Assembly: GCA_031362565.1 (NCBI GenBank)
Contig: JANLSU010000002.1
Location: forward strand, 1 to 17,474
DNA: 17,474 nt
From: a bacterium
GTDB lineage: Bacteria > Krumholzibacteriota > Krumholzibacteriia > G020349025
Direction of reading: 5' to 3'
Below are positions 2,846 through 17,474 of the stretch, piece after piece. Made by a program: the position numbers and the translations under genes. Positions within the stretch are counted from its first letter, which is position 1, and the number at the start of each line of letters is the position of its first letter. Under the pieces are notes generated by a model, which searched no databases, had not been told where the DNA came from, and saw only the letters and a program-made list of their open reading frames with translations.

Positions 2846-2855
2846 ATGATATACT
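2846..2855. promoter_or_regulatory. Overlapping divergent -10 elements
   Basis: The plus strand has an extended -10 TGaTATACT (2847-2855) and the minus strand has TATCAT (2851-2846). Both lie in the gap between divergent starts 2812 and 2930. Confidence 0.4.
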
Positions 2856-2929
2856 GCCCGAGCCACACTCGGCACGCCGTGATTTCCTTGCACCCGCATC
2901 GATTCAGGCCTCCCAAGGAGACCCGGGCT

Positions 2930-4531
2930 TTGGACGCAGCACTCGTACAGCGGTTTGCGACGCTCTGCGGTCCGGCGGCGTCATCGGCCACGGTGCGCCG
3001 CGTGGTGCGCACGGCGGACGGGCTCGTTCTCGTGCTCCATGACGGCGGCCGTGAACTCGAATTGGGCTTCGCCGCACCACGTGGCACCGCGTGGGCGTGG
3101 ATGCTGCGCGGCGGCGAGCGCGCCGCGCTCACTGCAGCCGTCGCACGTTCCACGCCGCAACTCGTCGAATCGCCGCTCGCCGGGTGGCGCGACCCGAATG
3201 CATCGCCACTCGATGCGTTCCGGCTCTGGCTGTTGCGGCCGGGCGGCGGCGCCGGGCCGTGGCTGCGCCTCGAGGGGACGCAAGTGACGGGCGTGCATGC
3301 CCGGCCGGGCGACCGCGTCTTCGAACTGCAGCTCGAGCAACGCGATAATCTGGGCCGGCTGGAGCGTTTGCGCCTGGTCGCCGAGCTCTTCGATCATGCC
3401 GCGAATCTTCAACTCTTCGATGGCGACGACACGGTGGTCGCGAGCTGGCACGATCGGGCTCCAGTCGCGGCGCGCGTAGTCGCGGCGCGCGCCAGCGCGC
3501 CGCAATCCGGTCACTCCTCGCCGGCCACTGAACCAGACGCTGCGGCGACCTCGTTAGACCGCATGAATTCCGTGGACCTCTGCGCCGCCGCCTGGCTCGC
3601 CCTCTCCCAGAGCGCCGCCGATGAACTCGTCCGCGGCCGCCATCACGCGTGGCGGCGCGCCATCGCGCATGCCGAACGGCTGATCGAGAAACTCGCCGCC
3701 GAAAGCGCCGACACCGATACCGCGGCGCGGTGGCGGCAGGACGGCGAACTTCTCACCGCCAACCTGCATCGCATCAAACGCGGCCAGAGCCGCGTGACGG
3801 TCGAGGATTGGTTCGAGAATGGTGCGCAACGCGACATCGAACTAGATCCCACCGCATCGGCACAGGAGAACATCGCACGCTTATTCAAACGCGCCCGGCG
3901 CACCGCGCGCGGCCGCGACACGGTCGCGATACGGCGGAGCCAGGCCGAAGCGCAAGCCAGCGCGGCGCGCGCCGCGCTGGCCGCCTTGCCGGCCGATGCG
4001 GCTTGGGATGTGGTCCTGGGTGCGGCGCCCGAAGCCTTGCTGGCGGCGTGTCCACGCGCCGCTTCAAGTGCGGTACCGGCGCTCTGGACTCCCGGTGGCC
4101 CGGCAAGTACTGCGCCCGAGGTGACGCGCGACGCCCCACAACGCCCCACCGGCCCCGGCCGCGCCTTCCAACTTCCCGGCGGCTGGGAGGTGCGCGTCGG
4201 GCGCAGCAACGCCGACAACGACGAACTCACGCATCGCTTTGCGCATCCCAACGACGTGTGGTTGCACGCCAGCGGCGTGCCGGGATCACACGTCGTACTG
4301 CGCATGCAGGGTCACGACGGCAATCCTCCGCGCGAAGTGCTCGAAGTCGCTGCGGCGCTGGCCGCCCGTTTCAGCAAAGCCAAGCACGCCGGCACCGTGC
4401 CGGTCATTTGGACCCGCAAGCGCTACGTGCGGAAACCGCGCGGCGCCGCCCCCGGCCTCGCCGCTTGCACGCACGAGAAAACCGTTTTTGCAAAACCGGC
4501 GCTGCCGGAAGGAGTGGAATCCGATGACTGA
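2930..4531 (+). CDS. rqcH: NFACT family protein (RqcH/Rqc2/FbpA-like ribosome quality-control factor) with C-terminal NFACT-R (DUF814) domain
   Basis: TTG at 2930 follows AAGGAG (2915-2920). NFACT-N motifs GDRVFEL and LVAELF..ANL; middle region GELLTANLH...ELDPTASAQENIARLFKRARR; NFACT-R motifs VGRSNADNDELT, DVWLHA..VPGSHVV and YVRKPRGAAPG. Confidence 0.82.
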   Translation: MDAALVQRFATLCGPAASSATVRRVVRTADGLVLVLHDGGRELELGFAAPRGTAWAWMLRGGERAALTAAVARSTPQLVESPLAGWRDPNASPLDAFRLWLLRPGGGAGPWLRLEGTQVTGVHARPGDRVFELQLEQRDNLGRLERLRLVAELFDHAANLQLFDGDDTVVASWHDRAPVAARVVAARASAPQSGHSSPATEPDAAATSLDRMNSVDLCAAAWLALSQSAADELVRGRHHAWRRAIAHAERLIEKLAAESADTDTAARWRQDGELLTANLHRIKRGQSRVTVEDWFENGAQRDIELDPTASAQENIARLFKRARRTARGRDTVAIRRSQAEAQASAARAALAALPADAAWDVVLGAAPEALLAACPRAASSAVPALWTPGGPASTAPEVTRDAPQRPTGPGRAFQLPGGWEVRVGRSNADNDELTHRFAHPNDVWLHASGVPGSHVVLRMQGHDGNPPREVLEVAAALAARFSKAKHAGTVPVIWTRKRYVRKPRGAAPGLAACTHEKTVFAKPALPEGVESDD

Positions 4532-5051: not shown

Positions 5052-7793
5052 TCACGGGCCGCCGAGCAGCGGTCCGATTTCGCAGGCTTTGGCCGCGGGC
5101 GTGACGATGTAGGTGTCCGAGCCGGCGGTGAACAACGAACGCCTGGTGATGGCAATGCGATCCTGCATGGCGGTGCAAAGAACCAAGGAGCGGCCGGGGA
5201 ACTCCGGATTGGCGACCGCGACGGCGACGCCGAATTTCTCGGCCCGATAGCCCTTGTTGTTGACGATCACGGCGCCATCTTCCCAACGTACCGGCAAGCG
5301 CGACGCCCAGCGCGCGATCCACGAGTTCGAGTCCGGCGTGCCGACCAACAATAGATTCATGCTCTGCGCCATCGGCTCCGTGAGCGCCGAGTCGGCGATG
5401 AGGCGCGGCTCGCCCAGGAACCGGCGCCGCCATTCATCAGCGACCTGGCGGGCGGTCGTGGCGTCGGATTGCGGTGGATGGAGCGCGATCGCCTCCGGGG
5501 CCGGTTTCGTATCGGCAGCCGCAGCCGGTGTAGTCCGCGTGCCGTAGACGATCGCGAACGGCCCGCGCGCGAAGACATCACACAGCGGGCCGCCGTTCGA
5601 TGCAAACAGCGCAGCGTTCGGCGCGCCGCCCGTGGCGAGGGTATGGGCGGCGAGAAATGCGCCGGTCGCATTGAGCTGCGCATCGAAAAACCGCGGGCCA
5701 TGATCGCCGCTCTGGTCGAGCACGAATTCGTGGGCGATTCCCAGCTCCTTCAGACGTGCGTCCATGATCCGCGCGTGCACCGGCGACACCACGGCATCGT
5801 GTTCGCCGTGCACGATTCGAAACGCCGTTCGTGGCGCCGCGCGCAGCAAGCGCACCGGGTTGTGGGCGTCGAACCAGCCGCGCTCCGCCGGCTGGAACTC
5901 GAGCAGTTTGAAGATGTCGCTTTGATCGAGATCACCATACGCGGCGATGGGATTCGCGGCCGCGAACAGCCCCGGATGGCGCAGCGCCAAGAGCCAGGTT
6001 CCAGTACCGCCCATGCCGTCGCCGGTCAGGTACAGGCGCCGCGCATCCACCAACCCATCCGCACGCACCGCTTGCAAAACCTCGAGCACATCGCGCTCGC
6101 CGGCCAGCGTGTATCCCGAATTGCCCCGGCCGTAGGGGCACACCGCAATCCAGCCGCGCTCTTGACACTGGACCGCGAGTGTCGAGTTGTCGAAGAGCGC
6201 CGACTCGTTCTGATCGAGGTCATGCAACGCCACGAGGAGCGGCGCTTGCGAAGCGACACCATGCGGCACGAACATCGTGAAGGGCTGCACACTGCCGTCG
6301 AGAGACGAACGGTGGCCGCGCAGCAGAACAGTATCGACGGGCAAGTTGCCGTGCACCCGTTGCGGCCAAAGTTCCGCGAGGCGCGCCACGGCAGCAGGCT
6401 CACCGCGCCGCACGCCGGCGAGGACTTCGGCCTCGTCGAGATTCGCCTCGACGGCGCTCCATGCCGCCATGCGGTAGGCCAGGATGCCAGTCGGATGAAA
6501 CTTGCGGTCGTCCCATACCCCGAGGGCGGCGGCGTCACGGCGGGCGCGTTGGAAGCGCACCACGACATCGGGCCCGGCGGGAAATGCGGTGCTCGTGTCG
6601 CCCAAAGCGGCGGCCTCGGCGGTTGCGAGCGCGGTCCCGAGCATCTCATCGGACGGCGCGAGCAACATCGTGCTGCGCTGCACGGGTGACGTGGCGCCGG
6701 TCAGCGTCACATCGACCGAAAATTCGCGCCCCGGGCCTGACACGGCCTTGGCGCCGGGCAGTGACCGTACGCAGGCGAAGAACGGCTGATGGGGTGCCGC
6801 GGCCCGTAACGGGCGCGTGCCGCGCAGCGCTCCAGTTGGAAATTCGAGGCTGAGCGTGTGCGCGTGCGCCGCGCCCGTGGGCGGCACCACCAGCCATTCG
6901 CAGAGCGACTCGGCGTACGGCCCCTGCGGGATCGTGAACCAGGTGTCGGGCCCCGGCCCACCCGTTGCATCGAAAATGCCCCAACTGGGGAGCCGGCCTT
7001 TGGCGCCGGCACCGACCGACCACGCGACGCGCTTGGCGATGCCGGCTTCGAAATCGTCCGCCATGACGTTGCACAGGAGCTTGGCATCGGCGCGCGGAAA
7101 AGCGGGATACAACGCCGCCCAGGGTATGAAGAGTTCGAAATCCAAGCGCCCGGCGGCCGCGGGATCGCGCCGCACCGCGGCGCGCACGCCGAGCGCGGTC
7201 GCATCGAACGGTTCCCGCCGCTTGTTGCGCAACAGCGTCCAGGCCTCGAGGCGGCCATCGGCGCGCACGCGCAGGCTGCGTGAACCGCCCATCCAGTAGC
7301 GCTGCACGACGTGCGACTCGGAGGCGAGCGCCAACGTGACGGATTCGCGTTCGAGCCCGGGCGCGCTCGGCGCTGAAAGCGAGTCGTCCCGCATTTGGGC
7401 CGCGAACCAAACGCCGCCCGCGTTCCACTGCATCGCAAAGCGCACCGCCAGGTCGGCGTCGCCATGCCAGTCGCCGGCGAGGCGAGCCTGCGGCCCGGCA
7501 ATGTCATACCAGCGTTCGAGGCGCCATTCGGCGAGATCGCCATCGATCGCGACCACTCGTTCGGCCCAGTGCACGAACGCCCGCGCCCGGTTCGCCGAAC
7601 CAAGCGAATCGGGGGGATAGACTTGGCTGGCGAATTTATCGCCGGGCGGGTAGATGGGCGGCAGGAGTGATTCGTCCCACGGCCGCACGTCGAGTGTCAG
7701 CGGCGGCGCGGCCCAGGCTCCGGGCACCGCGCTCCCTACGAGAGTCGCAGTGAAGACCATGGCCGCAAACAACGCTGTCGTCGGTCGCCGCAT
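5052..7793 (-). CDS. Large secreted protein: CBM9/DOMON-like domain + alpha/beta-hydrolase (S9 peptidase/esterase-like) fold + C-terminal domain; nucleophile Ser absent
   Basis: Signal peptide MRRPTTALFAAMVFTATLVGSAVPGAWA. CBM9-like IDGDLAEW...VWFAAQMRDD...FELFIPW. Hydrolase motifs SSLDGSVQPF, PYGRG, GERDVLEVL, RLYLTGDGMGG, HGEHDAVV and GDHG. Start could alternatively be 7826. Confidence 0.78.
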   Translation of the reverse strand: MRRPTTALFAAMVFTATLVGSAVPGAWAAPPLTLDVRPWDESLLPPIYPPGDKFASQVYPPDSLGSANRARAFVHWAERVVAIDGDLAEWRLERWYDIAGPQARLAGDWHGDADLAVRFAMQWNAGGVWFAAQMRDDSLSAPSAPGLERESVTLALASESHVVQRYWMGGSRSLRVRADGRLEAWTLLRNKRREPFDATALGVRAAVRRDPAAAGRLDFELFIPWAALYPAFPRADAKLLCNVMADDFEAGIAKRVAWSVGAGAKGRLPSWGIFDATGGPGPDTWFTIPQGPYAESLCEWLVVPPTGAAHAHTLSLEFPTGALRGTRPLRAAAPHQPFFACVRSLPGAKAVSGPGREFSVDVTLTGATSPVQRSTMLLAPSDEMLGTALATAEAAALGDTSTAFPAGPDVVVRFQRARRDAAALGVWDDRKFHPTGILAYRMAAWSAVEANLDEAEVLAGVRRGEPAAVARLAELWPQRVHGNLPVDTVLLRGHRSSLDGSVQPFTMFVPHGVASQAPLLVALHDLDQNESALFDNSTLAVQCQERGWIAVCPYGRGNSGYTLAGERDVLEVLQAVRADGLVDARRLYLTGDGMGGTGTWLLALRHPGLFAAANPIAAYGDLDQSDIFKLLEFQPAERGWFDAHNPVRLLRAAPRTAFRIVHGEHDAVVSPVHARIMDARLKELGIAHEFVLDQSGDHGPRFFDAQLNATGAFLAAHTLATGGAPNAALFASNGGPLCDVFARGPFAIVYGTRTTPAAAADTKPAPEAIALHPPQSDATTARQVADEWRRRFLGEPRLIADSALTEPMAQSMNLLLVGTPDSNSWIARWASRLPVRWEDGAVIVNNKGYRAEKFGVAVAVANPEFPGRSLVLCTAMQDRIAITRRSLFTAGSDTYIVTPAAKACEIGPLLGGP

Positions 7794-7905
7794 CGCGGTG
7801 TTTGGCTCGGGGCTCGAACGCACCATGGCGCTGAATATGGCGTGCCGCGCCGCCAAACGCTACCCAGCCCGCCCCGCGGCCGGCAGGCGTGGGTGTGCTT
7901 GCGAC

Positions 7906-7963
7906 AAGAAATCGAAAAGAGTGCCGAAAGGCGAACGAGGCGCTCGGAGAGAGCGCCCCGTTC
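7906..7963 (-). terminator. Probable 3' end/terminator of the ncRNA
   Basis: 13-bp stem GAACGGGGCGCUC-UCUCC-GAGCGCCUCGUUC, then a small GCC-UUUC-GGC hairpin and UCUUUUCGAUUUCUU. The U-tract is not directly adjacent to the long stem. Confidence 0.45.
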
Positions 7964-8268
7964 AATGGTGTCGCCGCCTCTGCGCCCAGAACCATGGCCA
8001 GAACGCCTTGCGTGGGAGGGACAAGGCGTAACGCTCCGTTGGCCACCCGGACCGGCGACACCCGCCGAGTCATGGCAACGAACGTTGGCGTTGAGGATCG
8101 GTGCGGATTCTGGAGTCGAGTCGTGATGTGGTACCGGGTCCGCACGGCTCCCTGGAGTCAGGGTCCCGAGGAGGGGGCAGAACCCCCTCCCCGGATTTCC
8201 TGTTGCTCGTTGTCCCCTGGCAGGTTACCAGGTGACCGCGAGCTCTCCGCCGTTGCTCGTTGCACCCT
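7910..8268 (-). ncRNA. Putative sigma54-dependent structured non-coding RNA (~360 nt), family not recognised
   Basis: No credible ORF. At least six stem-loops (8236-8212, 8194-8166, 8163-8150, 8145-8101, 8062-7967, 7963-7933). Several contain G-U pairs that would be A-C on the plus strand. Upstream -24/-12 promoter and U-rich 3' tail. Ends are approximate. Confidence 0.6.
8202..8262 (-). repeat. 11-nt direct repeat CAACGAGCAAC x2
   Basis: Plus-strand GTTGCTCGTTG at 8202-8212 and 8252-8262, exactly 50 nt apart. Confidence 0.85.
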
Positions 8269-8278
8269 CTTCTTCCTT

Positions 8279-8295
8279 TGCAGGGTTCATGCCGT
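8279..8295 (-). promoter_or_regulatory. sigma54 (RpoN) -24/-12 promoter
   Basis: Minus strand ACGGCATG-AACC-CTGCA vs consensus YTGGCACG-N4-TTGCW, with exact GG-N10-GC spacing. Confidence 0.7.
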
Positions 8296-8321
8296 CTTCT
8301 GGCACTAGTCCTTCTTCCACG

Positions 8322-8334
8322 CAACTCACTGTTT
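8322..8334 (-). promoter_or_regulatory. IHF-like binding site
   Basis: Minus strand AAACAG-TGAG-TTG vs WATCAR-N4-TTR (1 mismatch). It lies between the -24 element and the candidate enhancer boxes. Confidence 0.45.
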
Positions 8335-8351
8335 TTCAATGGATAGGGCTC

Positions 8352-8389
8352 AAAAAGACAGGGTCCGGCGCGACTCGCCGGACCCTGTC
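8352..8389 (-). terminator. Rho-independent terminator of the 8811-8449 gene
   Basis: Perfect 14-bp stem GACAGGGTCCGGCG / CGCCGGACCCTGTC with a 5-nt loop, followed by TTTTT on the minus strand. Confidence 0.88.
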
Positions 8390-8393
8390 AAAA

Positions 8394-8427
8394 GGCAAAT
8401 TTTTTAACAACCGTTAATTCTCTGGAC
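8394..8427. promoter_or_regulatory. Candidate tandem upstream activator sequences (GTYAA-N5-TTRAC-like)
   Basis: GGCAAATTTTTTAAC (8394-8408) and GTTAATTCTCTGGAC (8413-8427), ~125-160 nt upstream of the predicted start site. Related boxes occur at 13467-13499. Confidence 0.5.
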
Positions 8428-8448
8428 GCCTCGTTTGAGTCCAGGCGG

Positions 8449-8811
8449 TTATTCCGTGTTCTGAGGTCCGGTGCGTTTGTCGATATCGCCGCTCTCCAGC
8501 GAGAACGGGACGGGCGTCGCGCCGACCGAAATCGTCGTGGTGATGTTCCGATTCACCCATCGGATCACGACCTGGACCGGTTCGGTGCCGGAAGTCCGGA
8601 CGGCCTCGCCTTTGACTCGGATGCTCGAGATCTCGATGAATGACACTTCGGCCGGGCCGTAGGTGGTGACCTCGACGATCTGCCCGTTCGCCAGGCGCGT
8701 CGAACTCGTGCCGCCGCCCACCGAGGGCGGAATGATGGTCTCCTGCGCAGAAGCCGCCACCGGCACAAGTGCCATGGCGCAAATCAACAGGCCAAAGCAA
8801 AGCTTTTTCAT
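8449..8811 (-). CDS. Small secreted beta-rich hypothetical protein (120 aa)
   Basis: Classic signal peptide MKKLCFGLLICAMALVPVAASA-Q. It has its own sigma70-like promoter and a strong terminator. Confidence 0.85.
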   Translation of the reverse strand: MKKLCFGLLICAMALVPVAASAQETIIPPSVGGGTSSTRLANGQIVEVTTYGPAEVSFIEISSIRVKGEAVRTSGTEPVQVVIRWVNRNITTTISVGATPVPFSLESGDIDKRTGPQNTE

Positions 8812-8851
8812 CGCATGCCCCGATCCCTTGGGGAACTACCCGAGTGAGCGA

Positions 8852-8880
8852 AGTATACGCCGCGCGGGGCCGAGCGTCCA
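8852..8880 (-). promoter_or_regulatory. sigma70-type promoter for the 120-aa gene
   Basis: Minus strand TGGACG-17 nt-TATACT, ~40 nt upstream of ATG 8811. Confidence 0.65.
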
Positions 8881-8894
8881 CGCCATTCTGAAGG

Positions 8895-8911
8895 CTGGCA
8901 CGGACCTGGCG
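8895..8911 (+). promoter_or_regulatory. sigma54-like -24/-12 element pointing antisense into the bEBP 3' end
   Basis: CTGGCACG-GACC-TGGCG: perfect -24 box, GG-N10-GC spacing, and TGGC at -12. Confidence 0.4.
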
Positions 8912-8954
8912 CCGGCGGCGCTGCCGGACCCTACCCGCCCCGGGGACGGGGGGG

Positions 8955-11900
8955 TCACTTCAAGCGCGTGTAGAGGGTCGGCTTGCTGATTCCGAGCATT
9001 CGGGCACTCAGGGTTTTCTCGCGGAATTTGTCGACCGCGGCCCGGGCCAGCGCTTTTTCCAGGCTTTCCATGAGTGGGTCACGGATCGAGTAGGCGGCGT
9101 GGTCGAGGATCCAGCGCGCCACTTCGTCGATCGACGCCTCGCCGGGCGTTTCGCCGCCCTCGCGGCCGCGCAGCACTGCCGTCGGCAGGTCTTCCGGCAA
9201 TAGGACGTCGCGATTCGAAAGCACCAGGCTGCCCTTCATGGCGTTTTCGAGTTCGCGAATGTTGCCCGGCCAGGCGTAGCGCATCATGATGCGCAGCGCC
9301 TCACCCGACACCGTCTTCGGACGCAGGCCCATGAGCCCGGAGTGCATCTTCAGAAAGAACTTCGCCAGGTCGGGAATATCCTCGCGCCGTTCACGAAGCG
9401 GCGGCATGGTGAGTGCGAGGACATTGATGCGATGAAAGAGGTCGCGCCGGAACCGGCCGGCTTCGACCGCCGCCTCGAGTTTTTGATTCGTTGCCGCCAC
9501 GATCCGCACGTCGACGCGGGTCGGCTCGGTCGCACCGACCCGGGTGATCGTCTTGTCTTGCAGCACTCGCAAGAGTTTGGTTTGCATATCCCAGGGCATG
9601 TCGCCGATCTCGTCCAGGAGCATCGTGCCGCGGTGTGCCGCTTCGAAGAAACCCTTGCGCGACTCGTGCGCATCGGTGAAGGCGCCCTTTTCGTTGCCGA
9701 ACAACTCGCGCTCCCACAGCGCTTCGGGAATCGCCGTGCAGTTGATGCTGATGAGCGGAAATCCGCGGCGTTTGCCGGTGCCATGAATGGCGCGTGCGAC
9801 GACTTCCTTCCCGGTGCCGTTGTCGCCCATGAGCAACACCGTGGCGTCCAAGTCGCGCACCTGGCGGACGAAATCGACGATGTGCTGGCGCGCCGAGCTG
9901 CGGCCGATGATGCTGTCGAGGCCGGTTTCGTCCGCCGCCGGCGCCAAGGGGCTCGCATCGCCGGCCGTCGACATCTTCCGCATGCCCGGCGCCGATTCGC
10001 GCTCCAGAACGAACGCAACGTGCTGGGCAATCGTGCGCAGTACCGGCATTTTCGCTTCTTCGAGTTGCGGTGCGCCGAGGTCCCATTCCAAGTAGATGCA
10101 ACCGACCGCGACGTCGGCGGCCTCCAGCGGCAGCACATAGAAAGGCCGCGCCGGCTTCTCGCCCGGCACGTCGTCGGATCCGAACGGCACGAGCATTTGG
10201 AGAGCGCGGCCGACAAGGCGCGGATGATCGAGAATCGCCGGTGGCTCGACACCGGGAGCGTGATCGGTCACCGACGCACGATGCGGCACCGAGTCGGCGC
10301 CGACGACCACGACGTGGCGAGCACCAGAGACGGCGCGCAACTCCTGGAGAATCGATTCGAGCGCCCGGCCATCGCTGCCGGAACTCGCCGCGAGGGCCGC
10401 GGTCCGGCACAACGCATCCACGAGCCGCGTGCTGTCGGCGCCTTCCACGGCCGTAACGTTGGTGCCGAGCACCGCCTCGAGGTCCACGAGTTGTTTCGGT
10501 GTGACGCCGGCGCCATCGCGCGCGAACATCGGACGCGCCCGCTCGACCAGGTCGCGGGCCCGGGATTCGACGCCGCTGTCGTGATAGAGCTGGGCTGCTT
10601 TCAGGAACACTTCGGCAGCCCGGCGGGTGTTCCCCAGACGCGCCAAATTGTTCCCCGCATGCTCGTAGGACAACGCCGCCTGGCGCAAATCGCCTTGGGC
10701 ATGGCGCAACTCGCCGTGCGTCAGATGCCAGTTCGCCTCCTCGAGCGGTGAACCGGCACTCGACAGATACTCTTCCGCCTCCCGCAGACGCTGCTCGGCG
10801 TTGTCGAGGTGGCCGCTCCGCAGTTCCAGGCTGGCGAACTTGCGCAAGTTCACGAACAACTCGGCCATGTCGCCGAGGGCCCGCGTTTCGTCGATCGCTT
10901 CCTGCAAGACGGCGCGCGCTTCCGGCATGCGTTCCTGCAGCAAGTAGATCTCGCCCAGCAATCCTTTCCCAAGCGCCCGGGTACTTGGAACGCCCAGATC
11001 GTCGCCCAGGCGGCAGGCGCGGATTGCATGCTCCTCGGCTGTGTCGAGATTGCCCATCTCGAAGTGCACCCACCCGAGATTGACGAGATTGCGTGCTACC
11101 CCTTCCTCGTCACCCAGCTCCTGGCGAATCGCGACACTTCTCTGATGATGCTCGAGCGATTCCGGGAAGCGGTGCATGGCGCGGTACAGAACGCCGAGGT
11201 TGTTGTACACGCGCGCCACCGCGAGCCGGTCGCCGATTTTCTCGCGCAGCGCCAAGCAGGTCGAAAAATATTGTTCGGCTTCCTCGTAGCGGCTGGTCTT
11301 CCAGCGGATCGAAGCCAGCGCGCTGTAGACCTGCGCGACGTCCTTGGCGTCATCGCGCGCGTCGAGCAGCTTGAGCGCCACTTGGCAACGGTCCTCGGCC
11401 GCATTGAAGCGGCTCAACCGCAGCTCGCAATACGCCTGCTCCGAGAACAGGCGGCCGCGGTCCGAAGCGCGCAAGCGGTCGCCGAAACGTTCCAAGAACC
11501 GCTGCACGAGGTCGAGAGCCCGCGCCGGCCCCACCCGCCGCTCCAGAAGATCGGCATGTGCCAAGATCATTGCGGTCACGTTCTCGAAGTCGAACCCGTC
11601 GGCCTCGTTCTCCGCCGACTGGAACAAGCGTTCCGCCGCGCGCTCATAGTAACTTTGGCCTTCGCTGAACTTGCCGTGCTCGACTTCCCAAGCACCGAGC
11701 CGTTGCAGAAGCCACAGCAAGCGCGGCAGCGGCACGTGATGGACGAGGTTCGAACTCACCAGTTTGCGCTGCACGGCGCGGCATAGGGTGTCGAGACCGC
11801 GTTTTTCCGCGGCTTTGAGCAGCGGTTCCGCGGCGATCACCGCATCTTCCCAACTGCCGCCGGCAAAGAGATGATGAAACCGCAAGTAGCGCTGGCCGAG

Positions 11901-13451
11901 CGATTGCGCGTCGGAGTGTTCGAGCAGATGTGAAATGAGCAGATGCAACTCTTCACGGCGTTCCGGGGTCAGCGCCGAACGCCGCGCCTCGAGCACGTCG
12001 GGACGCAAGGCGCGCAGCACGAGCCGTAACTCGGAACCCCACCAACCGCCGGAATCCAGTTGCCGGCGGACGTGCCCGGCCCGCTCCAGTTCGACGATCG
12101 CCTCGGGCAAACTTGCTTCCTGGCTCGGCAGCGCTTGGCGCAACATGGCGGCCGTCGCATCGACTTCCAGCACACAAAGCAGATCCAGCAAATGCCGGGC
12201 GGCAGGCGATGTCGGTGGCGCCGGGTCCGCGAACGCGGCGTCGACGATCGATACCGTGCGCACCGCGACGTCGGCGCCGCAGCACGCCCGCGCCCAGGTC
12301 GCGACATCGCCACCGGTTGAATCCGGCAGGACCGCTCCACGCCGCATGCCGACGACGGCCAGGAAAGGCCGCACCCGGTCCCACTGCAGCGTGGCGAGCG
12401 GCAAGAGTTGGGGCTCGCCCGGCTGCTCGTCGGGCACCAACAGAACATGGCCGCCATCGCCCACGAGATCGCGCGGCTCCCAAGCACTCAGCGCTTCAAT
12501 CCAGGTCACACGCGGCCGCTCGGTGAGAAAGGACAACCGTTCACGCACCCGGAAGAAGAGCTGCTTCAGGCCGGCGCCGTTTGCCCCACCCTCGATCACC
12601 ACGACGCTGCTGCGTCCGGCTGCGAGTTGTTCCAAACACGCATCCATCGCTTCGATGACAGCCGACTCACTGGCGCCGAATGCGGTGACGCGCACATCGG
12701 ACAGGCGTTCGACACTGCGCCGCAGGGGGTCGGCGTTGACCGGCGCAAAGGGTTCGTCGAGTTCGCGCGCCAATACATCGGGGCCGGTGCGCAACTCGGG
12801 TTCGAGGGCCAGCATGCGCATGACCCGCGGCAGCCATTCGGGAGCCGCATCGTTGCCGCGATCGACGATCGCTGCCAGCACCGCACCGAGCATGTATCCG
12901 TCGGTGGTCGAGGCGAACAAACCGGCGTGCCGCAGTTCCGGCGGTTGGTATGGCGACCGCGCGCCTAAGCGCGCCAACATTTCGAACGGCAGCACCCACG
13001 CTCCGGGCAGCACCACGAAGCGGTCGCCCTGCCACGCCAAGTACTCCGGCCGCAAATTGAGGATGTGATCGCCGCCGGCATTCGCCGCCGCGAGATCGAC
13101 GAGTAGTGCTTGCAGGGCATGGGTATCCGGCAATCGGGTCGGCGCCAACCCGTGGAGCGCGAGGTCGTCGTCGGTCGAATACACATAGTAGGGGCCCTGG
13201 GACCAGGATCCGACCGCGAGGACCGGCACAAAACTCGGCAGCGCCGCAAACCGCTCGATGCGGTTCCGGAGCGCCGGCAGCCAGTCTTCGGTCCAGCGCC
13301 CCGCAATCCGGTCGAAGCCGTCGGCCGCCGGGCATTCCAGCACGTCGATCCGGCCGCGAATCAGGTCGCTGGCCCGATACCGGGTGCGCCCGGCGAGCTT
13401 GGGCAAGGGCTCGAGGATCCGGAACTTGGAGTCGACAATCGTCTCGGCCAC
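8955..13451 (-). CDS. Giant sigma54 enhancer-binding protein: degenerate protein-kinase-like domain + degenerate P-loop domain + TPRs + GAF-like + AAA+ + Fis-type HTH
   Basis: GTG follows GGAGG. AAA+ motifs GDNGTGKE, INCTAIPE, ELFGNEKGAFTDA, LLDEIGDM, AATN, FRRDLFHRIN and WPGNIRELEN. HTH ARMLGISKPTLY. TPRs such as ARVYNNLGVLY and ARNLVNLGWVH. N-terminal kinase remnants LNLRPEY, YQPPE and DGYMLG. Confidence 0.9.
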   Translation of the reverse strand: MAETIVDSKFRILEPLPKLAGRTRYRASDLIRGRIDVLECPAADGFDRIAGRWTEDWLPALRNRIERFAALPSFVPVLAVGSWSQGPYYVYSTDDDLALHGLAPTRLPDTHALQALLVDLAAANAGGDHILNLRPEYLAWQGDRFVVLPGAWVLPFEMLARLGARSPYQPPELRHAGLFASTTDGYMLGAVLAAIVDRGNDAAPEWLPRVMRMLALEPELRTGPDVLARELDEPFAPVNADPLRRSVERLSDVRVTAFGASESAVIEAMDACLEQLAAGRSSVVVIEGGANGAGLKQLFFRVRERLSFLTERPRVTWIEALSAWEPRDLVGDGGHVLLVPDEQPGEPQLLPLATLQWDRVRPFLAVVGMRRGAVLPDSTGGDVATWARACCGADVAVRTVSIVDAAFADPAPPTSPAARHLLDLLCVLEVDATAAMLRQALPSQEASLPEAIVELERAGHVRRQLDSGGWWGSELRLVLRALRPDVLEARRSALTPERREELHLLISHLLEHSDAQSLGQRYLRFHHLFAGGSWEDAVIAAEPLLKAAEKRGLDTLCRAVQRKLVSSNLVHHVPLPRLLWLLQRLGAWEVEHGKFSEGQSYYERAAERLFQSAENEADGFDFENVTAMILAHADLLERRVGPARALDLVQRFLERFGDRLRASDRGRLFSEQAYCELRLSRFNAAEDRCQVALKLLDARDDAKDVAQVYSALASIRWKTSRYEEAEQYFSTCLALREKIGDRLAVARVYNNLGVLYRAMHRFPESLEHHQRSVAIRQELGDEEGVARNLVNLGWVHFEMGNLDTAEEHAIRACRLGDDLGVPSTRALGKGLLGEIYLLQERMPEARAVLQEAIDETRALGDMAELFVNLRKFASLELRSGHLDNAEQRLREAEEYLSSAGSPLEEANWHLTHGELRHAQGDLRQAALSYEHAGNNLARLGNTRRAAEVFLKAAQLYHDSGVESRARDLVERARPMFARDGAGVTPKQLVDLEAVLGTNVTAVEGADSTRLVDALCRTAALAASSGSDGRALESILQELRAVSGARHVVVVGADSVPHRASVTDHAPGVEPPAILDHPRLVGRALQMLVPFGSDDVPGEKPARPFYVLPLEAADVAVGCIYLEWDLGAPQLEEAKMPVLRTIAQHVAFVLERESAPGMRKMSTAGDASPLAPAADETGLDSIIGRSSARQHIVDFVRQVRDLDATVLLMGDNGTGKEVVARAIHGTGKRRGFPLISINCTAIPEALWERELFGNEKGAFTDAHESRKGFFEAAHRGTMLLDEIGDMPWDMQTKLLRVLQDKTITRVGATEPTRVDVRIVAATNQKLEAAVEAGRFRRDLFHRINVLALTMPPLRERREDIPDLAKFFLKMHSGLMGLRPKTVSGEALRIMMRYAWPGNIRELENAMKGSLVLSNRDVLLPEDLPTAVLRGREGGETPGEASIDEVARWILDHAAYSIRDPLMESLEKALARAAVDKFREKTLSARMLGISKPTLYTRLK

Positions 13452-13591: not shown

Positions 13592-14944
13592 GTGTTTCGA
13601 ACGAATTCCAGACGAACTCTATTGATCGCCGCCCTGGTCGGGGTCGGGGTGATCGTATTGAATGTTGCCCTCGGCCTGCTGTACCGCGAGTCGCGCCGGG
13701 GCGTCGAAGCCGAACTCGGGCGCCGCCTCGAAGACGTCGTTAGCGTCTTGGGCCGGTTCCTCGATCCGAACTTGGTGCAACGTGCCGCCACCGAGGCCTT
13801 CGCACCGGTCGACTCGGCGGGCGGATCCGGTCCGCCGGCGCCGCGGCCGGCCGCCGATTCCTTGCGTGCGATTCTGAACGAGGTCGCCGATGCGACCGAC
13901 CTGGCGAACGTGCGGGTCTACGACGCAGTCGGTGTGGCATTTCTCGATATCGCCGGACTCGGGCACAGCGACACCGCACCCGAAGCACTCGATCCCGCCG
14001 GAGTCACTGCCGCGCTCACCGGCTCGACCGTGCACAGCGAGCCCTTCGAGTCGGGCGGCGAGTTCTTGATGGCCGGATACGCGCCGGTCCGCGACGCTGC
14101 CGGCGTGCCGGTCGCGGCGGTCGCCGTCGAGGCCGACGCGCGTTTTTTCGAAGCCGTGCAGCGGTTGCGTTTCGCGATGATCGGCAGCGCCGTGCTGAGC
14201 GCGCTCGTCCTGATCGGGCTCGGCGTGACATTCGCGCGCGTGCAAGCGTCGCTGCAGCACGCCCAGGCCGCCATGCAACAGGCCGAGACGCTGGCCGCCA
14301 TGGGCCGCATGGCCGCCGGCATCGCCCACGAGATCCGCAACCCGCTCGGCATCATCAAGGCCACCGCGGCACGGCTCAAGAAGCGTTATGACGACAGCGC
14401 CAATCCGGACGAGCGTTTCGATTACATTTCCGACGAGGTCGAGCGCCTGAATGCCATCTTGACCGGCTATCTCAGCTTCGCCCGCGACGAACCGTCGGTG
14501 CGCACGGCGCTCGATCTCACGCTGCTCGTGCAACGCAGCATGCGGCTCGCGGCGCCGGAACTGGAGAGTGCCGGCGTCCAGGTCGAAGTGCAGACGCCGC
14601 CCGAGTGCACGGTGCTGGGCGACGCGCAACGCCTGCAGCAAGTGGTTTTGAACTTGGTGCTGAACGCGGCCCAAGCGATGCTGCAGGGCGGCAGCCTCGT
14701 GGTCCGGCTCGAGGCCGCCCACGGAATGGCACGACTGAGCTTCGAAGACACCGGGCCGGGGCTGCCGCCGGGCGCCCGCGACCGGCTCTTCGAACCATTC
14801 GTGACGACCAAGGAGAAAGGCAGCGGACTCGGCCTCGCGGTGGCGCAACGCATCGTCGAGGAGCATGAGGGCCGCATCACACTGGGCGACGCGGCGGGCG
14901 GCGGCGCCCGCGTCGAAGTCGCACTGCCACTCGCAGCCGGTTGA
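13592..14944 (+). CDS. Membrane sensor histidine kinase (NtrB/ZraS/AtoS-like)
   Basis: Two TM segments flank a periplasmic Cache-like region (GYAPVRD). H-box AHEIRNPL, N-box QVVLNLVLNA, G1 DTGPG, F-box LFEPFVTTK and G2 GSGLGL. Confidence 0.95.
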   Translation: MFRTNSRRTLLIAALVGVGVIVLNVALGLLYRESRRGVEAELGRRLEDVVSVLGRFLDPNLVQRAATEAFAPVDSAGGSGPPAPRPAADSLRAILNEVADATDLANVRVYDAVGVAFLDIAGLGHSDTAPEALDPAGVTAALTGSTVHSEPFESGGEFLMAGYAPVRDAAGVPVAAVAVEADARFFEAVQRLRFAMIGSAVLSALVLIGLGVTFARVQASLQHAQAAMQQAETLAAMGRMAAGIAHEIRNPLGIIKATAARLKKRYDDSANPDERFDYISDEVERLNAILTGYLSFARDEPSVRTALDLTLLVQRSMRLAAPELESAGVQVEVQTPPECTVLGDAQRLQQVVLNLVLNAAQAMLQGGSLVVRLEAAHGMARLSFEDTGPGLPPGARDRLFEPFVTTKEKGSGLGLAVAQRIVEEHEGRITLGDAAGGGARVEVALPLAAG

Positions 14945-14960
14945 AGCACTGGAGACTCGC

Positions 14961-16334
14961 ATGACCGACATCCTCATCGTCGACGACGAGAAGCGCATGG
15001 GCCTGCTCCTCAAGGAGGAATTGCAGGACGCCGGCTACACGGTGGATGTCGAGTCGACGGGCGCCGGCGCGCTGGCACGGCTCGACGCCCAGCACTACGC
15101 GCTCGTGCTGTCCGATATCCGCATGGCGCCGCCCGACGGGCTCGAGATCCTGCGCATCACGAAGGAAAAATCGCCGTCGACGGACGTCATCATGATGACC
15201 GCGTATGCGTCGACGCAGACGGCGGTGCAAGCGATGAAACTTGGCGCCTACGACTATGTCATCAAGCCCTTCGACATGGAGGAAGTGCGCCTCATGGTGC
15301 AGCGGGCGTTCGAGCGCCAGGGATTGACGCGCGACAAGGCTACCCTGGCGCGCGAAAACGCCACGTTGCGCGATCAGCTGGCCGGCGTGCACCGCTCGAC
15401 GATCGTCGGCGAAAGTGCCGCGATCCAGGAATTGCGCCGCCTCATCGTTTTGGTGGCCGAATCCGAGGCGACCGTCTTCGTGAAGGGCGCGAGCGGCGCC
15501 GGCAAGGAACTCGTGGCGGCCGAGATCCACGCCCAGAGCCGGCGCGCCGGTGCGCCGTTCGTGGCCGTCAACTGCGCCGCCATCCCCGACACGTTGCTCG
15601 AGGGCGAACTTTTCGGTTCGGAAAAGGGCGCCTACACCGGCGCCGACGCGCGCAAGATCGGCCGCTTCGAGATGGCGCAGCACGGCACCATCTTTCTCGA
15701 CGAGATCGGCGAGATGGGTGCCGGCGTGCAGGCCAAACTGCTACGCGTGTTGGAGGAGCGCAAGATCACGCGCTTGGGCGGCAGCGGGCCCATCGATGTC
15801 GACATTCGCATCATCGCCGCTACGAATCGCAACCTCGAGGACATGATCCGCGACGGCCGCTTTCGGGACGACCTCTTCTACCGGCTGAATGTCTTTCCGA
15901 TCGAAGTGCCGCCGCTCGCGGCGCGCCGCGCCGATGTGCCGCTCTTGGCGGAGTTCTTTCTGCGCGAGCTGCGTTACGCACATTCCAAGTTGCCGTTGGA
16001 TGCGATCGAGGTCTTGCGGGCCCACGATTGGCCGGGCAACGTCCGCGAGTTGCGCAACGTCGTCGAGCGGGCCACCATCTTGGCGCGCGGGGGGCCGATC
16101 GAAGCGCTGCATTTCAGCCTGCCGCGGGCGCCGGGCGCCGCGGCCGCCAACGGCCCGATTTCGCTCGAGATGGACGTGCCGGAAGGCGGCATCGATCTCG
16201 AGCAGCTCGAAAAAAACCTCATCGGTAAGGCCTTGGTGCGGGCCGGCGGCAACAAATCGCAGGCCGCCCGGTTGCTGGGGATGACGCGCCGTACCTTGTA
16301 CAGTCGCATGGAGAAGCATGGGATCCAGGACTGA
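14961..16334 (+). CDS. sigma54-dependent response regulator (NtrC/AtoC/ZraR family)
   Basis: ATG 14961 follows GGAG. Receiver motifs VDDE, SDIRM, MTAY and KPF. AAA+ motifs GASGAGKE, GAYTGA, FLDEIGE and WPGNVRELRN. HTH GNKSQAARLLGMTRRTLY. Confidence 0.95.
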   Translation: MTDILIVDDEKRMGLLLKEELQDAGYTVDVESTGAGALARLDAQHYALVLSDIRMAPPDGLEILRITKEKSPSTDVIMMTAYASTQTAVQAMKLGAYDYVIKPFDMEEVRLMVQRAFERQGLTRDKATLARENATLRDQLAGVHRSTIVGESAAIQELRRLIVLVAESEATVFVKGASGAGKELVAAEIHAQSRRAGAPFVAVNCAAIPDTLLEGELFGSEKGAYTGADARKIGRFEMAQHGTIFLDEIGEMGAGVQAKLLRVLEERKITRLGGSGPIDVDIRIIAATNRNLEDMIRDGRFRDDLFYRLNVFPIEVPPLAARRADVPLLAEFFLRELRYAHSKLPLDAIEVLRAHDWPGNVRELRNVVERATILARGGPIEALHFSLPRAPGAAAANGPISLEMDVPEGGIDLEQLEKNLIGKALVRAGGNKSQAARLLGMTRRTLYSRMEKHGIQD

Positions 16335-16559: not shown

Positions 16560-17474
16560 ATGAGACTCTGGTTCCGACATCTGCCGCAGGCGATCGCCAC
16601 CGCGGGCGCAGTCTGCGTACTGCTCGCCTGCTCGGGTGTGGCGGTAGTGCGAGCGCAGGGGCCGGGTGGTCCCATTGGGCCCGATCCGACGCAGGTGCGG
16701 GCGGAACTCGAGCGCACCGACCAACTGCTGCAGCGCGCCCACGAGGTCGTCCAGGCCTCCGGCAATCCGCGCGCCGTCGAGCAGCTGCAATTCGCGCGGC
16801 AGTCGCAAGACGTGGCGTGGAATCAATTCAATCTGGCCCGCTATCGAATTGCGTTCGATGCCACGCTCCGCGCCCGCGACCAAGCGGAGCGCGCCATTCG
16901 CCTCGCCCAACAGCAAGGTGATCAGGAGCAGCACGCGCGGCGCGCCGTCGAAGACGCGAGCCGGGCCCTCGAGCGCACCCAGCAGTGTGCCGGCGATGCG
17001 CCGTCCGAGAATCAGCGCCGAATGTTGGAGCTCGCCCAGCAGCAAGTCGGACAGGCGCAGGAAGCGCTGCAGCAAATGCGCTGGGAGGTCGCCCTCGGCC
17101 TCGCGCAGCAAGTCTTGAACACCGTGCGCCTGGTCTGCAGCCAGCAGCCTTGCCCGCGCGTCGGTGAAATGCTGGACGACGTGCAGCGCCTGTACGACCG
17201 GGCCGCGCACGACGTGCCATCGGATGACGCGCGCACCCGCGACATTCTGGACCGCGCCCACGAACTCGTGGACCGCGGCCGCGAAGCCTTGCAACGCGGC
17301 GCCTGCGATGCGGCCTTCATGCAGGCGCGCCAAGCGCGCGACATGATTCTGCGGGCGCTCCGCAGTCACGAGGGTGAGCCCGACGCCGCGGCCGTGGATC
17401 GGGCCATCGACGCCACCGCGGCCTTCATCGAAACCGTCACGCAGCGCGTGCCGGCGGAAAGCGGCGCGGCGCGG
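16560..17474 (+). CDS. Secreted alpha-helical repeat protein, 3'-truncated (absent from ORF track)
   Basis: AGGAG RBS then ATG 16560: MRLWFRHLPQAIATAGAVCVLLACSGVAVVRAQGPGGPIGPDPTQVRAELERTDQLLQRAHEVVQ... The frame stays open to the window end with ~70-aa helical repeats. Confidence 0.85.
   Translation, partial: MRLWFRHLPQAIATAGAVCVLLACSGVAVVRAQGPGGPIGPDPTQVRAELERTDQLLQRAHEVVQASGNPRAVEQLQFARQSQDVAWNQFNLARYRIAFDATLRARDQAERAIRLAQQQGDQEQHARRAVEDASRALERTQQCAGDAPSENQRRMLELAQQQVGQAQEALQQMRWEVALGLAQQVLNTVRLVCSQQPCPRVGEMLDDVQRLYDRAAHDVPSDDARTRDILDRAHELVDRGREALQRGACDAAFMQARQARDMILRALRSHEGEPDAAAVDRAIDATAAFIETVTQRVPAESGAAR

Follow-up and report, generated by a model that had tools for sequence, protein, structure and literature searches.

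A sigma-54 activator with a pseudokinase and a dead STAND-type NTPase, and its candidate peptide ligand and probable small RNA output

The window analysed here (17,474 nucleotides, from an uncultured bacterial lineage) encodes a 1498-aa sigma-54 activator in which a pseudokinase is followed by a dead STAND-type NBD, a winged helix, a TPR array, a GAF domain, an AAA+ domain and an HTH. Residues 1-510, which span the first three of these, were modelled as a single confident folding unit, and computation showed that the usual kinase chemistry and the STAND nucleotide cycle are both impossible for this protein. Together with a neighbouring, predicted exported protein and a small RNA, the activator looks like a peptide-sensing circuit that has not been described previously. 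In the complete three-part circuit, a heptapeptide would bind the TPR, the activator would be released and the small RNA would be transcribed; we put this whole chain at not far short of an even chance.

Domain organisation and constraint of the activator

The original prediction read a kinase-like sigma-54 activator from an open reading frame at 8955..13451. That frame was recovered, on the minus strand (the prediction gave no strand), and the motifs cited in it were found at residues 130-137 (ILNLRPEY), 170-172 (PPE), 184-189 (DGYMLG) and 283-297 (VVVIEGGANGAGLKQ). The parts of the gene are:

8955..13451, minus: sigma-54 enhancer-binding protein, 1498 aa, GTG start (ORF call, Pfam, alignment, model)
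12741..13451, minus: pseudokinase, residues 1-237 (model, Foldseek, VIA, profile alignment)
12237..12689, minus: degenerate P-loop (AAA_16/STAND-type) domain lacking the Walker A Lys, residues ~255-405 (relatives and modelled secondary structure suggest the fold)
11922..12218, minus: winged-helix-like domain, residues ~412-510 (modelled secondary structure and conservation; name inferred)
10482..11921, minus: helical arm and TPR array, residues ~511-990 (Pfam, alignments)
11052-11354, minus: TPR core, residues 700-800, with R736, N750, N751, S772, G784 and N791 invariant (47/47)
9987..10439, minus: GAF-like domain, residues ~1005-1155 (Pfam matches in the family)
9153..9911, minus: intact sigma-54 AAA+ domain with GDNGTGKE, GAFTDA, LLDEIGD and arginine fingers (Pfam and motifs)
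8958..9068, minus: Fis-type HTH, recognition helix ~[KR]PT[LI]Y across relatives (Pfam and alignment)

Pfam matched TPRs at residues 680-965, Sigma54_activat at 1181-1347 (PF00158, E 1e-63), AAA_lid and, weakly, HTH_8 (E 0.03), but the full-length protein had no match to Pkinase, GAF or an N-terminal AAA_16. The TPRs, GAF-like region and AAA+/HTH that had been predicted are present, the GAF chiefly by way of relatives: GAF_2 scored E 0.067 in the activator itself, while 14 of 26 members matched GAF at E<=0.5 (best GAF_3, 1.5e-8). The AAA+ domain has the GAFTGA-type loop, Walker A/B and Arg fingers of a sigma-54 bEBP. TPR families above the Pfam cut-off supply the C-terminal repeat sensor of STAND/NLR proteins; a TPR_MalT match fell below the cut-off.

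An AlphaFold2 model of residues 1-570, made from a 47-row alignment, had a pLDDT of 93.1 and a pTM of 0.92; single-sequence AlphaFold of residues 1-680 (pLDDT 39.5) was uninformative. A sequence search of the PDB with alignment A2 gave weak or spurious matches only. With the N-terminal model, Foldseek returned at least 500 PDB matches at E<=1e-3, kinases throughout among the matches listed, and VIA aligned 216 residues (range 6-237; Z 18.3, rmsd 3.2 A). Profile-profile comparison with 34 intact kinases encoded by the host genome gave probabilities of 97-99%. These results uphold the predicted kinase layout as a bilobed fold from which every catalytic motif has disappeared. The Gly loop is gone, the beta3 Lys is E39, the alphaC Glu is Arg (R62 or R64), the HRD Asp is N132, the Asn is Y137 and DFG reads P149-G-A in the profile alignment, whereas PPE, the alphaF D184 and R221 are retained. 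An active Hanks kinase has the VAIK Lys, HRD Asp and DFG Asp; E39, N132 and P149 stand in their places here. In two overlapping 47-row alignments the beta3 column held Lys in 0/94 rows, and the DFG-Asp column was Pro in 47/47 and 46/47. The HRD Asp was kept in 5/47 rows of one alignment, all five without either the Lys or the DFG. D29, R64, L148 and P149 are conserved class-wide, and the C-lobe is truncated in family f3 and in some f5 members. A charge-swapped salt bridge between E39 and R62 or R64 is possible from the alignments, in f1 only (Glu in 16-17/47 rows).

AAA_16 matches at E<=1 came from 23/47 alignment members (best 3e-6), the activator not among them. Its Walker A (GxxxxGK[ST]) reads GGANGAGL: corrupted, as predicted, and without the Lys. 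Walker A is absent in f1, f2, f4, f5 and f6 but kept in 13/47 relatives (f3, f7, f9 and part of f8), which indicates erosion of the NTPase lineage by lineage. The degeneration is conserved among homologues, the kinase being dead family-wide. In the model the winged helix begins ~15 residues past the last NBD strand, which fits NBD plus WHD and would leave no space for helical domain 1. The fold searches were filled by kinase-domain matches, and the nearest Atlas clusters were kinase plus NB-ARC/AAA_16 proteins.

Across five pairs, dN/dS was 0.10-0.32 for the kinase, 0.15-0.53 for the NBD and 0.009-0.087 for the TPR core, with the NBD highest of all domains in 5/5 pairs with complete values. 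Judged by these ratios, the pseudokinase is under purifying selection, and among the sensor parts it is the TPR core, not the dead domains, that is most tightly constrained.

The original prediction was of an NLR-like switch; in a model of this kind the pseudokinase/NBD block would be the sensor or an oligomerisation switch driving hexamer formation. Selection on the pseudokinase, its four class-wide residues, the nearest Atlas clusters and the surviving Walker A of f3, f7, f9 and part of f8 suit that model. However, NLR/STAND switching is an ADP/ATP cycle, and with the Walker A Lys missing and helical domain 1 apparently absent such a switch is unsupported as worded. Walker A loss in five families, the truncated C-lobes and the fastest-evolving domain being the NBD also count against it; erosion this uneven, with the enhancer retained, is unexpected of a conserved sensor, and we consider the model quite improbable. 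Of the predicted decay into a "scaffold or sensor", scaffold is preferred because the NBD lacks the Walker A Lys, evolves fastest and keeps Walker A in only some relatives. The N-terminal 510-residue block would then rather probably serve as a structural scaffold, helping to keep the AAA+ domain inactive, with the sensor lying elsewhere.

The predicted exported protein, the promoter and the small RNA

The original prediction missed a candidate ligand, in the 120-aa, predicted exported neighbour, and the probable output, a small RNA. The elements beside the activator are:

8852..8880, minus: small-gene promoter of sigma-70 type (TGGACG-17-TATACT), a form shared by 7/7 f1 loci
8449..8811, minus: small protein of 120 aa, signal peptide of Sec type assigned by eye, beta-rich body (ORF call and alignment)
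8476..8496, minus: heptapeptide ESGDIDK, residues 106-112, candidate ligand (conservation)
8394..8427, no strand assigned: two degenerate GTAA-N7-TTAC predicted enhancer sites, 8427-8413 and 8408-8394 (sequence pattern)
8349..8389, minus: small-gene intrinsic terminator, lying between the enhancer sites and the sigma-54 promoter
8322..8334, minus: weak IHF-like site, 2 mismatches
8279..8294, minus: sigma-54 -24/-12 promoter, GG 8293-8292 and GC 8281-8280 (pattern and matrix)
7933..8267, minus: structured small RNA, ~300-335 nt (conservation, metatranscriptome contigs)

A signal-peptide-like N-terminus (basic-hydrophobic-AxA, by eye) runs across alignment A6 of the small protein, whose members are 113-130 aa long with a conserved beta-rich body in which W85 is nearly invariant. 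No family match was found for the 120-aa protein, and Atlas gave no usable match. The heptapeptide is ETGYAEK in 14/14 f3/f7 proteins, encoded by 14 different DNA codings amid 31% body identity, and [VI]TGHNEK in 9/9 f5 proteins; by this pattern it is under selection. It lies at the C-terminus or within 3 residues of it in most families, and 6-8 residues follow it in f1.

The sigma-54 site is kept in 6/6 aligned f1 loci, and a promoter matrix trained without the window ranked it 1st of 797 genome candidates (20.4 versus -2.8). The enhancer sites, repeated with a 19-bp period, lie at -133 and -114 relative to promoter position 8294. Those of the window are themselves degenerate; the exact palindrome occurs at -134 to -149 in 10/15 loci, against at most 1 in shuffles. 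The promoter predicted at 8295-8279 thus exists, at 8294-8279, and on the strength of the conserved site, the palindromes and the matrix rank it is the likely target of the activator. An HTH paired with a predicted upstream enhancer at a -24/-12 promoter is also what a sigma-54 bEBP has. In 6/14 f3/f7 small-gene loci there was no promoter or RNA downstream. From these patterns, binding of the HTH to the tandem GTAA-N7-TTAC sites and opening of the promoter by the AAA+ domain are very probable, and the activator probably switches on the small RNA.

It is extremely improbable that the promoter is instead driven by the adjacent NtrC-type response regulator (14964-16334), with the large protein acting elsewhere. 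The HK/RR pair does adjoin the activator in the window and in 3/5 other f1 loci, but the kinase gene (searched with a single query) occurred in 51/91 f2 and 0/12 f5 genomes and does not track the cassette, whereas the large activator does.

The small RNA comprises an invariant 5' block (8264-8243), a conserved 3' domain (8062-7967) and a closing hairpin (7963-7933). Metatranscriptome contigs lay on it in 4/4 studies (7973-8256, 7967-8227, 7995-8212 and 7916-8134); the studies were selected by a match to this stretch, and the contigs are those of relatives and carry neither strand nor true ends. One extends to 7916, beyond the closing hairpin. None covered 8340-8423, an absence that alone proves nothing. 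The RNA sequence differs between families except for short motifs. No match reached the Rfam gathering score: window positions 7800-9000 gave three sub-threshold matches and 10 relative loci none. A coding gene was rejected, the 5'-end reading frame varying from 10 to 165 codons in 7 loci; a 9-codon leaderless peptide may still be encoded. Nor is the RNA a CsrA sponge (CsrB/RsmZ-type), because f4 and f8 genomes keep it without CsrA (0/23 and 0/13, respectively). In the host genome, no start codon had a convincing complement of the RNA nearby and Hfq was not found. The leader of the activator itself showed no conserved pairing in 6 f1 loci, and the invariant f4/f8 RNA segment had no second exact match in 5 genomes. 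Base pairing is the most likely mode of action of the RNA.

Distribution of the cassette and the nature of the signal

Activator orthologues were found in 112/208 genomes of the phylum, a count in which related genomes are not independent and the profiles were partly built from genomes later counted. Searches beyond the phylum found no full-architecture relative outside the activator's own family. The order activator, small gene, enhancer, promoter, RNA was fixed in 6/6 f1 and 9/9 f5 loci examined and was also seen in f6 and f2. The activator and the small gene are adjacent in the window and in f1, f2, f5 and f6 and apart in f3, f4, f7 and f8; the enhancer-plus-promoter pattern search recovered the cassette, unlinked to the activator, in f4 and f8. 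The small protein is found together with the activator (in f2, the same 4/91 genomes have both), and no further gene among those tested tracks them. A conserved dedicated protease or importer was not found at the locus.

That the activator responds to "protein or peptide binding", as the original prediction put it, is plausible, and conservation points to the TPR core as the place. The signal would, on a slightly favourable view, be the heptapeptide bound in the Asn-lined TPR groove, whose Asn ladder is invariant. By analogy with RRNPP systems, the small protein might be exported, the peptide excised and then re-imported by an oligopeptide permease, in which case the circuit would report peptide accumulation; the host, which we take to be diderm, encodes 8 family-5 solute-binding proteins, a non-specific finding.

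The size of the small protein (113-130 aa) with its conserved body, the absence from the locus of any conserved, dedicated protease or importer and the unlinked activator in four families speak against a peptide model. Unlike short RRNPP propeptides, the conserved beta-rich body suggests that the whole fold has a job.

Two other readings bear on the ligand. The same TPR-heptapeptide contact could serve as a secretion monitor, the ligand being precursor that fails export; Sec or envelope stress would then be reported and no importer would be necessary. The small gene's own sigma-70 promoter suits a steady reporter substrate, a heptapeptide at or near the C-terminus needs no cutting, and the missing protease and importer fit. 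Such a monitor has no need of a conserved beta-rich body, and in f1 the heptapeptide is not terminal; we think it unlikely. Alternatively, the heptapeptide may be recognised by something else (a sorting enzyme or a periplasmic or membrane receptor), the input to the activator being a cytoplasmic protein or metabolite detected by its TPR or GAF, with the small protein a pathway member and not the ligand. This would account for the fold-like body, for an exported protein opposite a cytoplasmic TPR and for the GAF-like domain of the family, but few domains are less conserved than the GAF (47% within f1) and no further tested gene tracks the cassette, the histidine kinase included. We rate it as rather unlikely.

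On the heptapeptide-TPR reading, the cassette would represent lineage-wide peptide communication outside Bacillota, in which a lineage-specific heptapeptide, set free from an exported protein, is sensed in the cytoplasm by a TPR on a dead kinase-STAND scaffold and relayed by sigma-54 to one small RNA, in family-specific dialects. We advance this tentatively, with the balance somewhat against it.

Comparison with known systems

Titles and abstract openings of the papers found (few of them subscription papers) describe neither this architecture nor this circuit. MalT and AfsR-type STAND transcription activators have the order NBD-WHD-arm-TPR. The activator shares that order and has the sub-cut-off TPR_MalT match, but its Walker A is missing, helical domain 1 is apparently absent and its output runs through a separate sigma-54 AAA+ domain.

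Bacterial CP1 (pseudo)kinases are summarised as a kinase joined to a COG3899 ATPase and FhlA/GAF or PAS, with 34-37% lacking the Lys or HRD-Asp and 17% the DFG-Asp (PMC12599244; bioRxiv 10.1101/2025.01.12.632604). The activator resembles them as outlined there in its pseudokinase fused to a STAND-type ATPase (AAA_16 in relatives only, 23/47) and GAF/FhlA-like part, and a CP1 architecture is probably ancestral to it. In contrast to that outline, its family has lost the catalytic triad throughout, the protein itself falls below Pkinase detection, and in this lineage the ATPase is dead too. The CP1 passages of those two sources do not mention a TPR sensor, an exported partner or an RNA output. 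The family is a kinase-STAND signalling protein that loses both enzymatic switches stagewise while the fold is kept. Bacterial pseudokinases are, in the summary of a 2025 review, experimentally largely unexplored (PMC12599244); for one of them a candidate ligand, enhancer sequence, promoter and RNA output are now proposed, and a 7-mer peptide and an E. coli reporter would be enough to test every link, with no need to grow the host.

RRNPP receptors of Bacillota are given as 250-500 aa, with propeptides of 10-100 aa and validated ones of 21-50 aa (PMC10075063). Set against that outline, the cassette has a cytoplasmic TPR regulator adjoining (in the window, f1, f2, f5 and f6) a small gene whose product begins with a signal-peptide-like segment and bears a short conserved peptide towards its C-terminus. 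It differs in its 1498-aa receptor, a 120-aa partner with a beta-rich body, a sigma-54 and RNA output and a peptide binding that is putative.

The pairing of a sigma-54 activator and a small RNA of its own is also known, in outline, from Nla19-Pxr of Myxococcus, where pxr lies just downstream of nla19 (PMC5568312), and from LuxO/SypG-Qrr1 of Vibrio (PMC10162802). As presented there, Nla19 and LuxO/SypG are response regulators, whereas the input here would be a TPR on a pseudokinase-STAND scaffold, and the small RNA has no Rfam match in a host genome in which Hfq was not found. If the peptide link is true, intracellular peptide sensing, so far Gram-positive in the literature found, reaches another lineage and sigma-54, and an RRNPP-type input is joined to a LuxO/Qrr-type output.

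The pseudokinase activator

Features of the window discussed here are:
13451 to 8955, minus strand: activator ORF, 1498 aa
8449 to 8811, minus strand: 120-aa small protein, Sec-type signal peptide by eye
8427-8413 and 8408-8394: enhancer sites as placed by the matrix
8294-8279, minus strand: sigma-54 promoter
7933 to 8267: structured RNA
8896-8911, plus strand: sigma-54-like GG-N10-GC site
13592-16334, plus strand: divergent histidine kinase and NtrC-type regulator
16560-17474, plus strand: helical exported protein
5055-7856, minus strand: 934-aa protein with a Peptidase_S9/esterase domain
2846-4531, plus strand: NFACT/RqcH-like gene

That a real pseudokinase-STAND sigma-54 activator heads a three-part cassette is well supported. 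Pfam placed TPRs at activator residues 680-965 and a sigma-54 AAA+ domain at 1181-1347 (E 1e-63) with all motifs intact, in agreement with the original prediction; the AAA+ lid is present, the Fis HTH match is weak, and residues 1-570 had no Pfam match. The window's genome contains rpoN. Residues 1-620, used as the query of a homologue search, retrieved 16 proteins, all but one about 1500 aa long; source labels on two read Krumholzibacteriia and Latescibacterota. A TPR-GAF profile at E ≤ 1e-40 detected the activator in 112 of the 208 genomes searched from the phylum, at one locus each, sometimes split across contigs. By family (f1 being the window's own), it occurs in 5/6 f1, 4/91 f2, 41/43 f3, 22/23 f4, 11/12 f5, 9/10 f6, 7/8 f7, 11/13 f8 and 1/1 f9 genomes, plus that of the window.

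The activator N-terminus is a pseudokinase. AlphaFold2 modelled residues 1-570 from a 47-row alignment with a pLDDT of 93.1 and a pTM of 0.92, and two fold searches matched protein kinases over residues 2-237 (best match Z 18.3, rmsd 3.2 Å, 216 aligned). The window's genome encodes 34 intact Hanks kinases and about 22 sigma-54 AAA+ domains, and profile alignment to these kinases assigned the catalytic positions: E39 stands at the β3 Lys, Arg at the αC Glu, Y137 at the metal-binding Asn and P149 at the DFG Asp, while N132 replaces the catalytic Asp. The Gly loop is lost. The kinase fold proposed from sequence is thus present, with the catalytic Lys and Asp both replaced, and the degeneration is conserved. 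Across two overlapping 47-row alignments, no row of either has Lys in the β3 column, the DFG Asp is Pro in 47 rows of one and 46 of the other, and Asp in the HRD column occurs in no row of one and five of the other. Five pairs yielded a dN/dS value, all within 0.10-0.32 (the sixth pair was saturated), so the domain is not drifting.

The second domain was recognized as an NTPase through its relatives: 23 of 47 alignment members match AAA_16 at E ≤ 1, and the clusters nearest in the Atlas are of proteins that join a kinase to NB-ARC or AAA_16 (scores 0.90-0.91). The corrupted Walker A holds for this protein but not as a family-wide state, GK[ST] being retained in 13 of 47 rows (f3, f7, f9 and 5/7 f8); no fewer than three changes are needed to explain this on a quick tree, which in other respects follows the families but has two unsure long branches. 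Among the domains, dN/dS is highest in the NBD (0.15-0.53), and in the AlphaFold2 model the winged helix begins about 15 residues after it, so that helical domain 1 seems to be absent. The activator's NTPase is eroding. Since Walker A is lost, the NBD evolves fast and helical domain 1 is apparently missing, a nucleotide switch is unlikely in this protein, which argues against the NLR-like switch first proposed. In the TPR core (residues 700-800), dN/dS is 0.009-0.087, the lowest of any domain except in one of the five pairs, where only the AAA+ domain is lower, and R736, N750, N751, S772, G784 and N791 are invariant in 47/47 rows. Asn ladders bind peptide backbones.

Several variants were seen. 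The first Asp of the AAA+ Walker B is Asn (LNEIG) in f3/f7/f9 activators (L023, L025-L027, L029, L030, L032, L079), where the STAND-domain Walker A is retained; the motif reads LDD[IV]N in f4/f8. An f6 activator (L145, G021:C2) has a single in-frame TAA within its TPR array; either the gene is broken or the sequence is in error. At six loci (L023, L025-L027, L029, L079) the activator is followed after about 200 nt by a 271-276-aa metallophosphatase-like ORF with an abrupt MARW/MARR start, possibly with an upstream part containing a recoded UGA. The site at 8896-8911 points at the activator gene's 3' end; its conservation was not seen in an alignment of six f1 loci.

Exported protein, promoter and RNA

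The small protein had profile matches in 104/208 genomes at E ≤ 0.01; setting aside six that cover only the signal-peptide end leaves 98. In f2, full matches occur in exactly the four genomes that have the activator, and next to its gene. The small protein's heptapeptide follows the pattern [EDV]-[TSG]-G-x-x-[ED]-[KR], apart from variants in f6. It reads ESGDIDK in the window, ETGYAEK in 14/14 f3/f7 proteins, [VI]TGHNEK in 9/9 of f5, and E[GS]G[FW]TEK or EGGFVDR in 14/15 of f4/f8. Since the heptapeptide is more conserved (identity 0.70-1.0) than the body (0.31-0.42) and nearly all DNA codings differ, selection acts on the peptide rather than the enhancer, which in f8 overlaps the small gene's stop codon. 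The heptapeptide is retained without the RNA downstream at 6/14 f3/f7 loci.

Six f1 loci, aligned over the DNA 3' of the activator, share the small gene, a conserved -24/-12 site, a block of 22 invariant nt where the RNA is predicted to begin, and a conserved 3' structure; the gene beyond varies. A 15-nt core occurs exactly, once per genome, in 7/7 f1 genomes and nowhere else among the 208. The order is the same in 9/9 f5 loci, with a different RNA. The palindrome GTAA-N7-TTAC, a motif derived from these loci, lies 134-149 nt upstream in 10/15 (at most one in shuffles). Genome-wide, the enhancer and promoter pattern matched in 38/208 genomes; among matches inspected, most from f4, f8 and f6 turned out to be this cassette, its tandem sites spaced 19-20 bp apart; in f4 and f8 it is not linked to the activator. 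Several matches, including both from f2, are unrelated. With the window left out of its training, a matrix placed the 8294 promoter at the top of 797 candidates in the window's genome (20.4 vs -2.8). Of 50 promoters, 11 have an IHF-like site with no more than one mismatch, against a mean of 0.9 and a maximum of 4 in shuffles; the site in the window carries two. At one f5 locus (L070), a second copy of the RNA lies roughly 1 kb downstream of the activator, in opposite orientation and facing the first, with a sigma-54 promoter of its own.

The window RNA folds with a z of -4.6. In an alignment of only six related sequences, one truncated, three 3' helices are paired in 98% of cells and six pairs changed on both sides. 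Neither it nor the relatives' loci matched Rfam. Four of six RNA runs were examined; all four, retrieved by this sequence, gave contigs from relatives (7973-8256 and 7967-8227, entirely on the stretch; 7995-8212; 7916-8134), from which strand and ends are not readable. The window's genome has CsrA, and Hfq was not found in it; searches of f4 and f8 genomes did not recover CsrA. There was no convincing complement near start codons in the window's genome, nor conserved pairing with the activator's own leader in six f1 loci. In the f4/f8 RNAs (L132-L155), a 3' block of some 35 nt hardly varies. Its complement resembles a ribosome-binding site with an ATG, and five genomes contained no further exact copy of the block.

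Flanking genes

Presence of the neighbouring histidine kinase does not follow that of the cassette; the kinase lies with the regulator and helical exported protein beside the activator in 3/5 other f1 loci. The Peptidase_S9 gene is downstream of the RNA in 6/6 f1 loci compared, an arg operon intervening in genus g2. Because f1 is the family whose heptapeptide carries a tail (6-8 residues), its product might, speculatively, process the f1 small protein. At six f3/f7 loci (L187, L188, L194, L195, L199, L200) a convergent gene resembling NFACT/RqcH by eye follows the small gene; with the similar gene near the window's cassette, this suggests an old linkage.

Proposed mechanism and known systems

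The proposal starts from features computed here, namely the kinase fold with its catalytic loss, the intact AAA+ domain, the co-occurrence of activator and small protein, the conservation of enhancer and promoter, and the presence of the RNA in relatives. The activator very probably drives the 8294 promoter, where it would act with sigma-54 to make the RNA. The dead kinase-NTPase block is probably a scaffold that helps autoinhibition. We lean slightly toward binding of the heptapeptide in the TPR groove, to which the six invariant residues belong. The exported peptide could reach the cytoplasmic TPR by re-import after cleavage or through failed export.

The cassette is assembled from known parts, the heptapeptide is a candidate ligand only, and the most interesting link is the putative one. 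Literature searches brought up no title or abstract opening that describes a pseudokinase activator combined with an exported protein and an RNA. In the available portions of the sources, the closest architecture is that of the CP1 (pseudo)kinases (PMC12599244; bioRxiv 10.1101/2025.01.12.632604), a likeness of architecture. The activator and small protein would work like an RRNPP pair, yet lie outside two of the five size criteria in the text accessible from PMC10075063. As far as the accessible texts go, the output resembles that of nla19-pxr (PMC5568312) and of LuxO-Qrr1 (PMC10162802).
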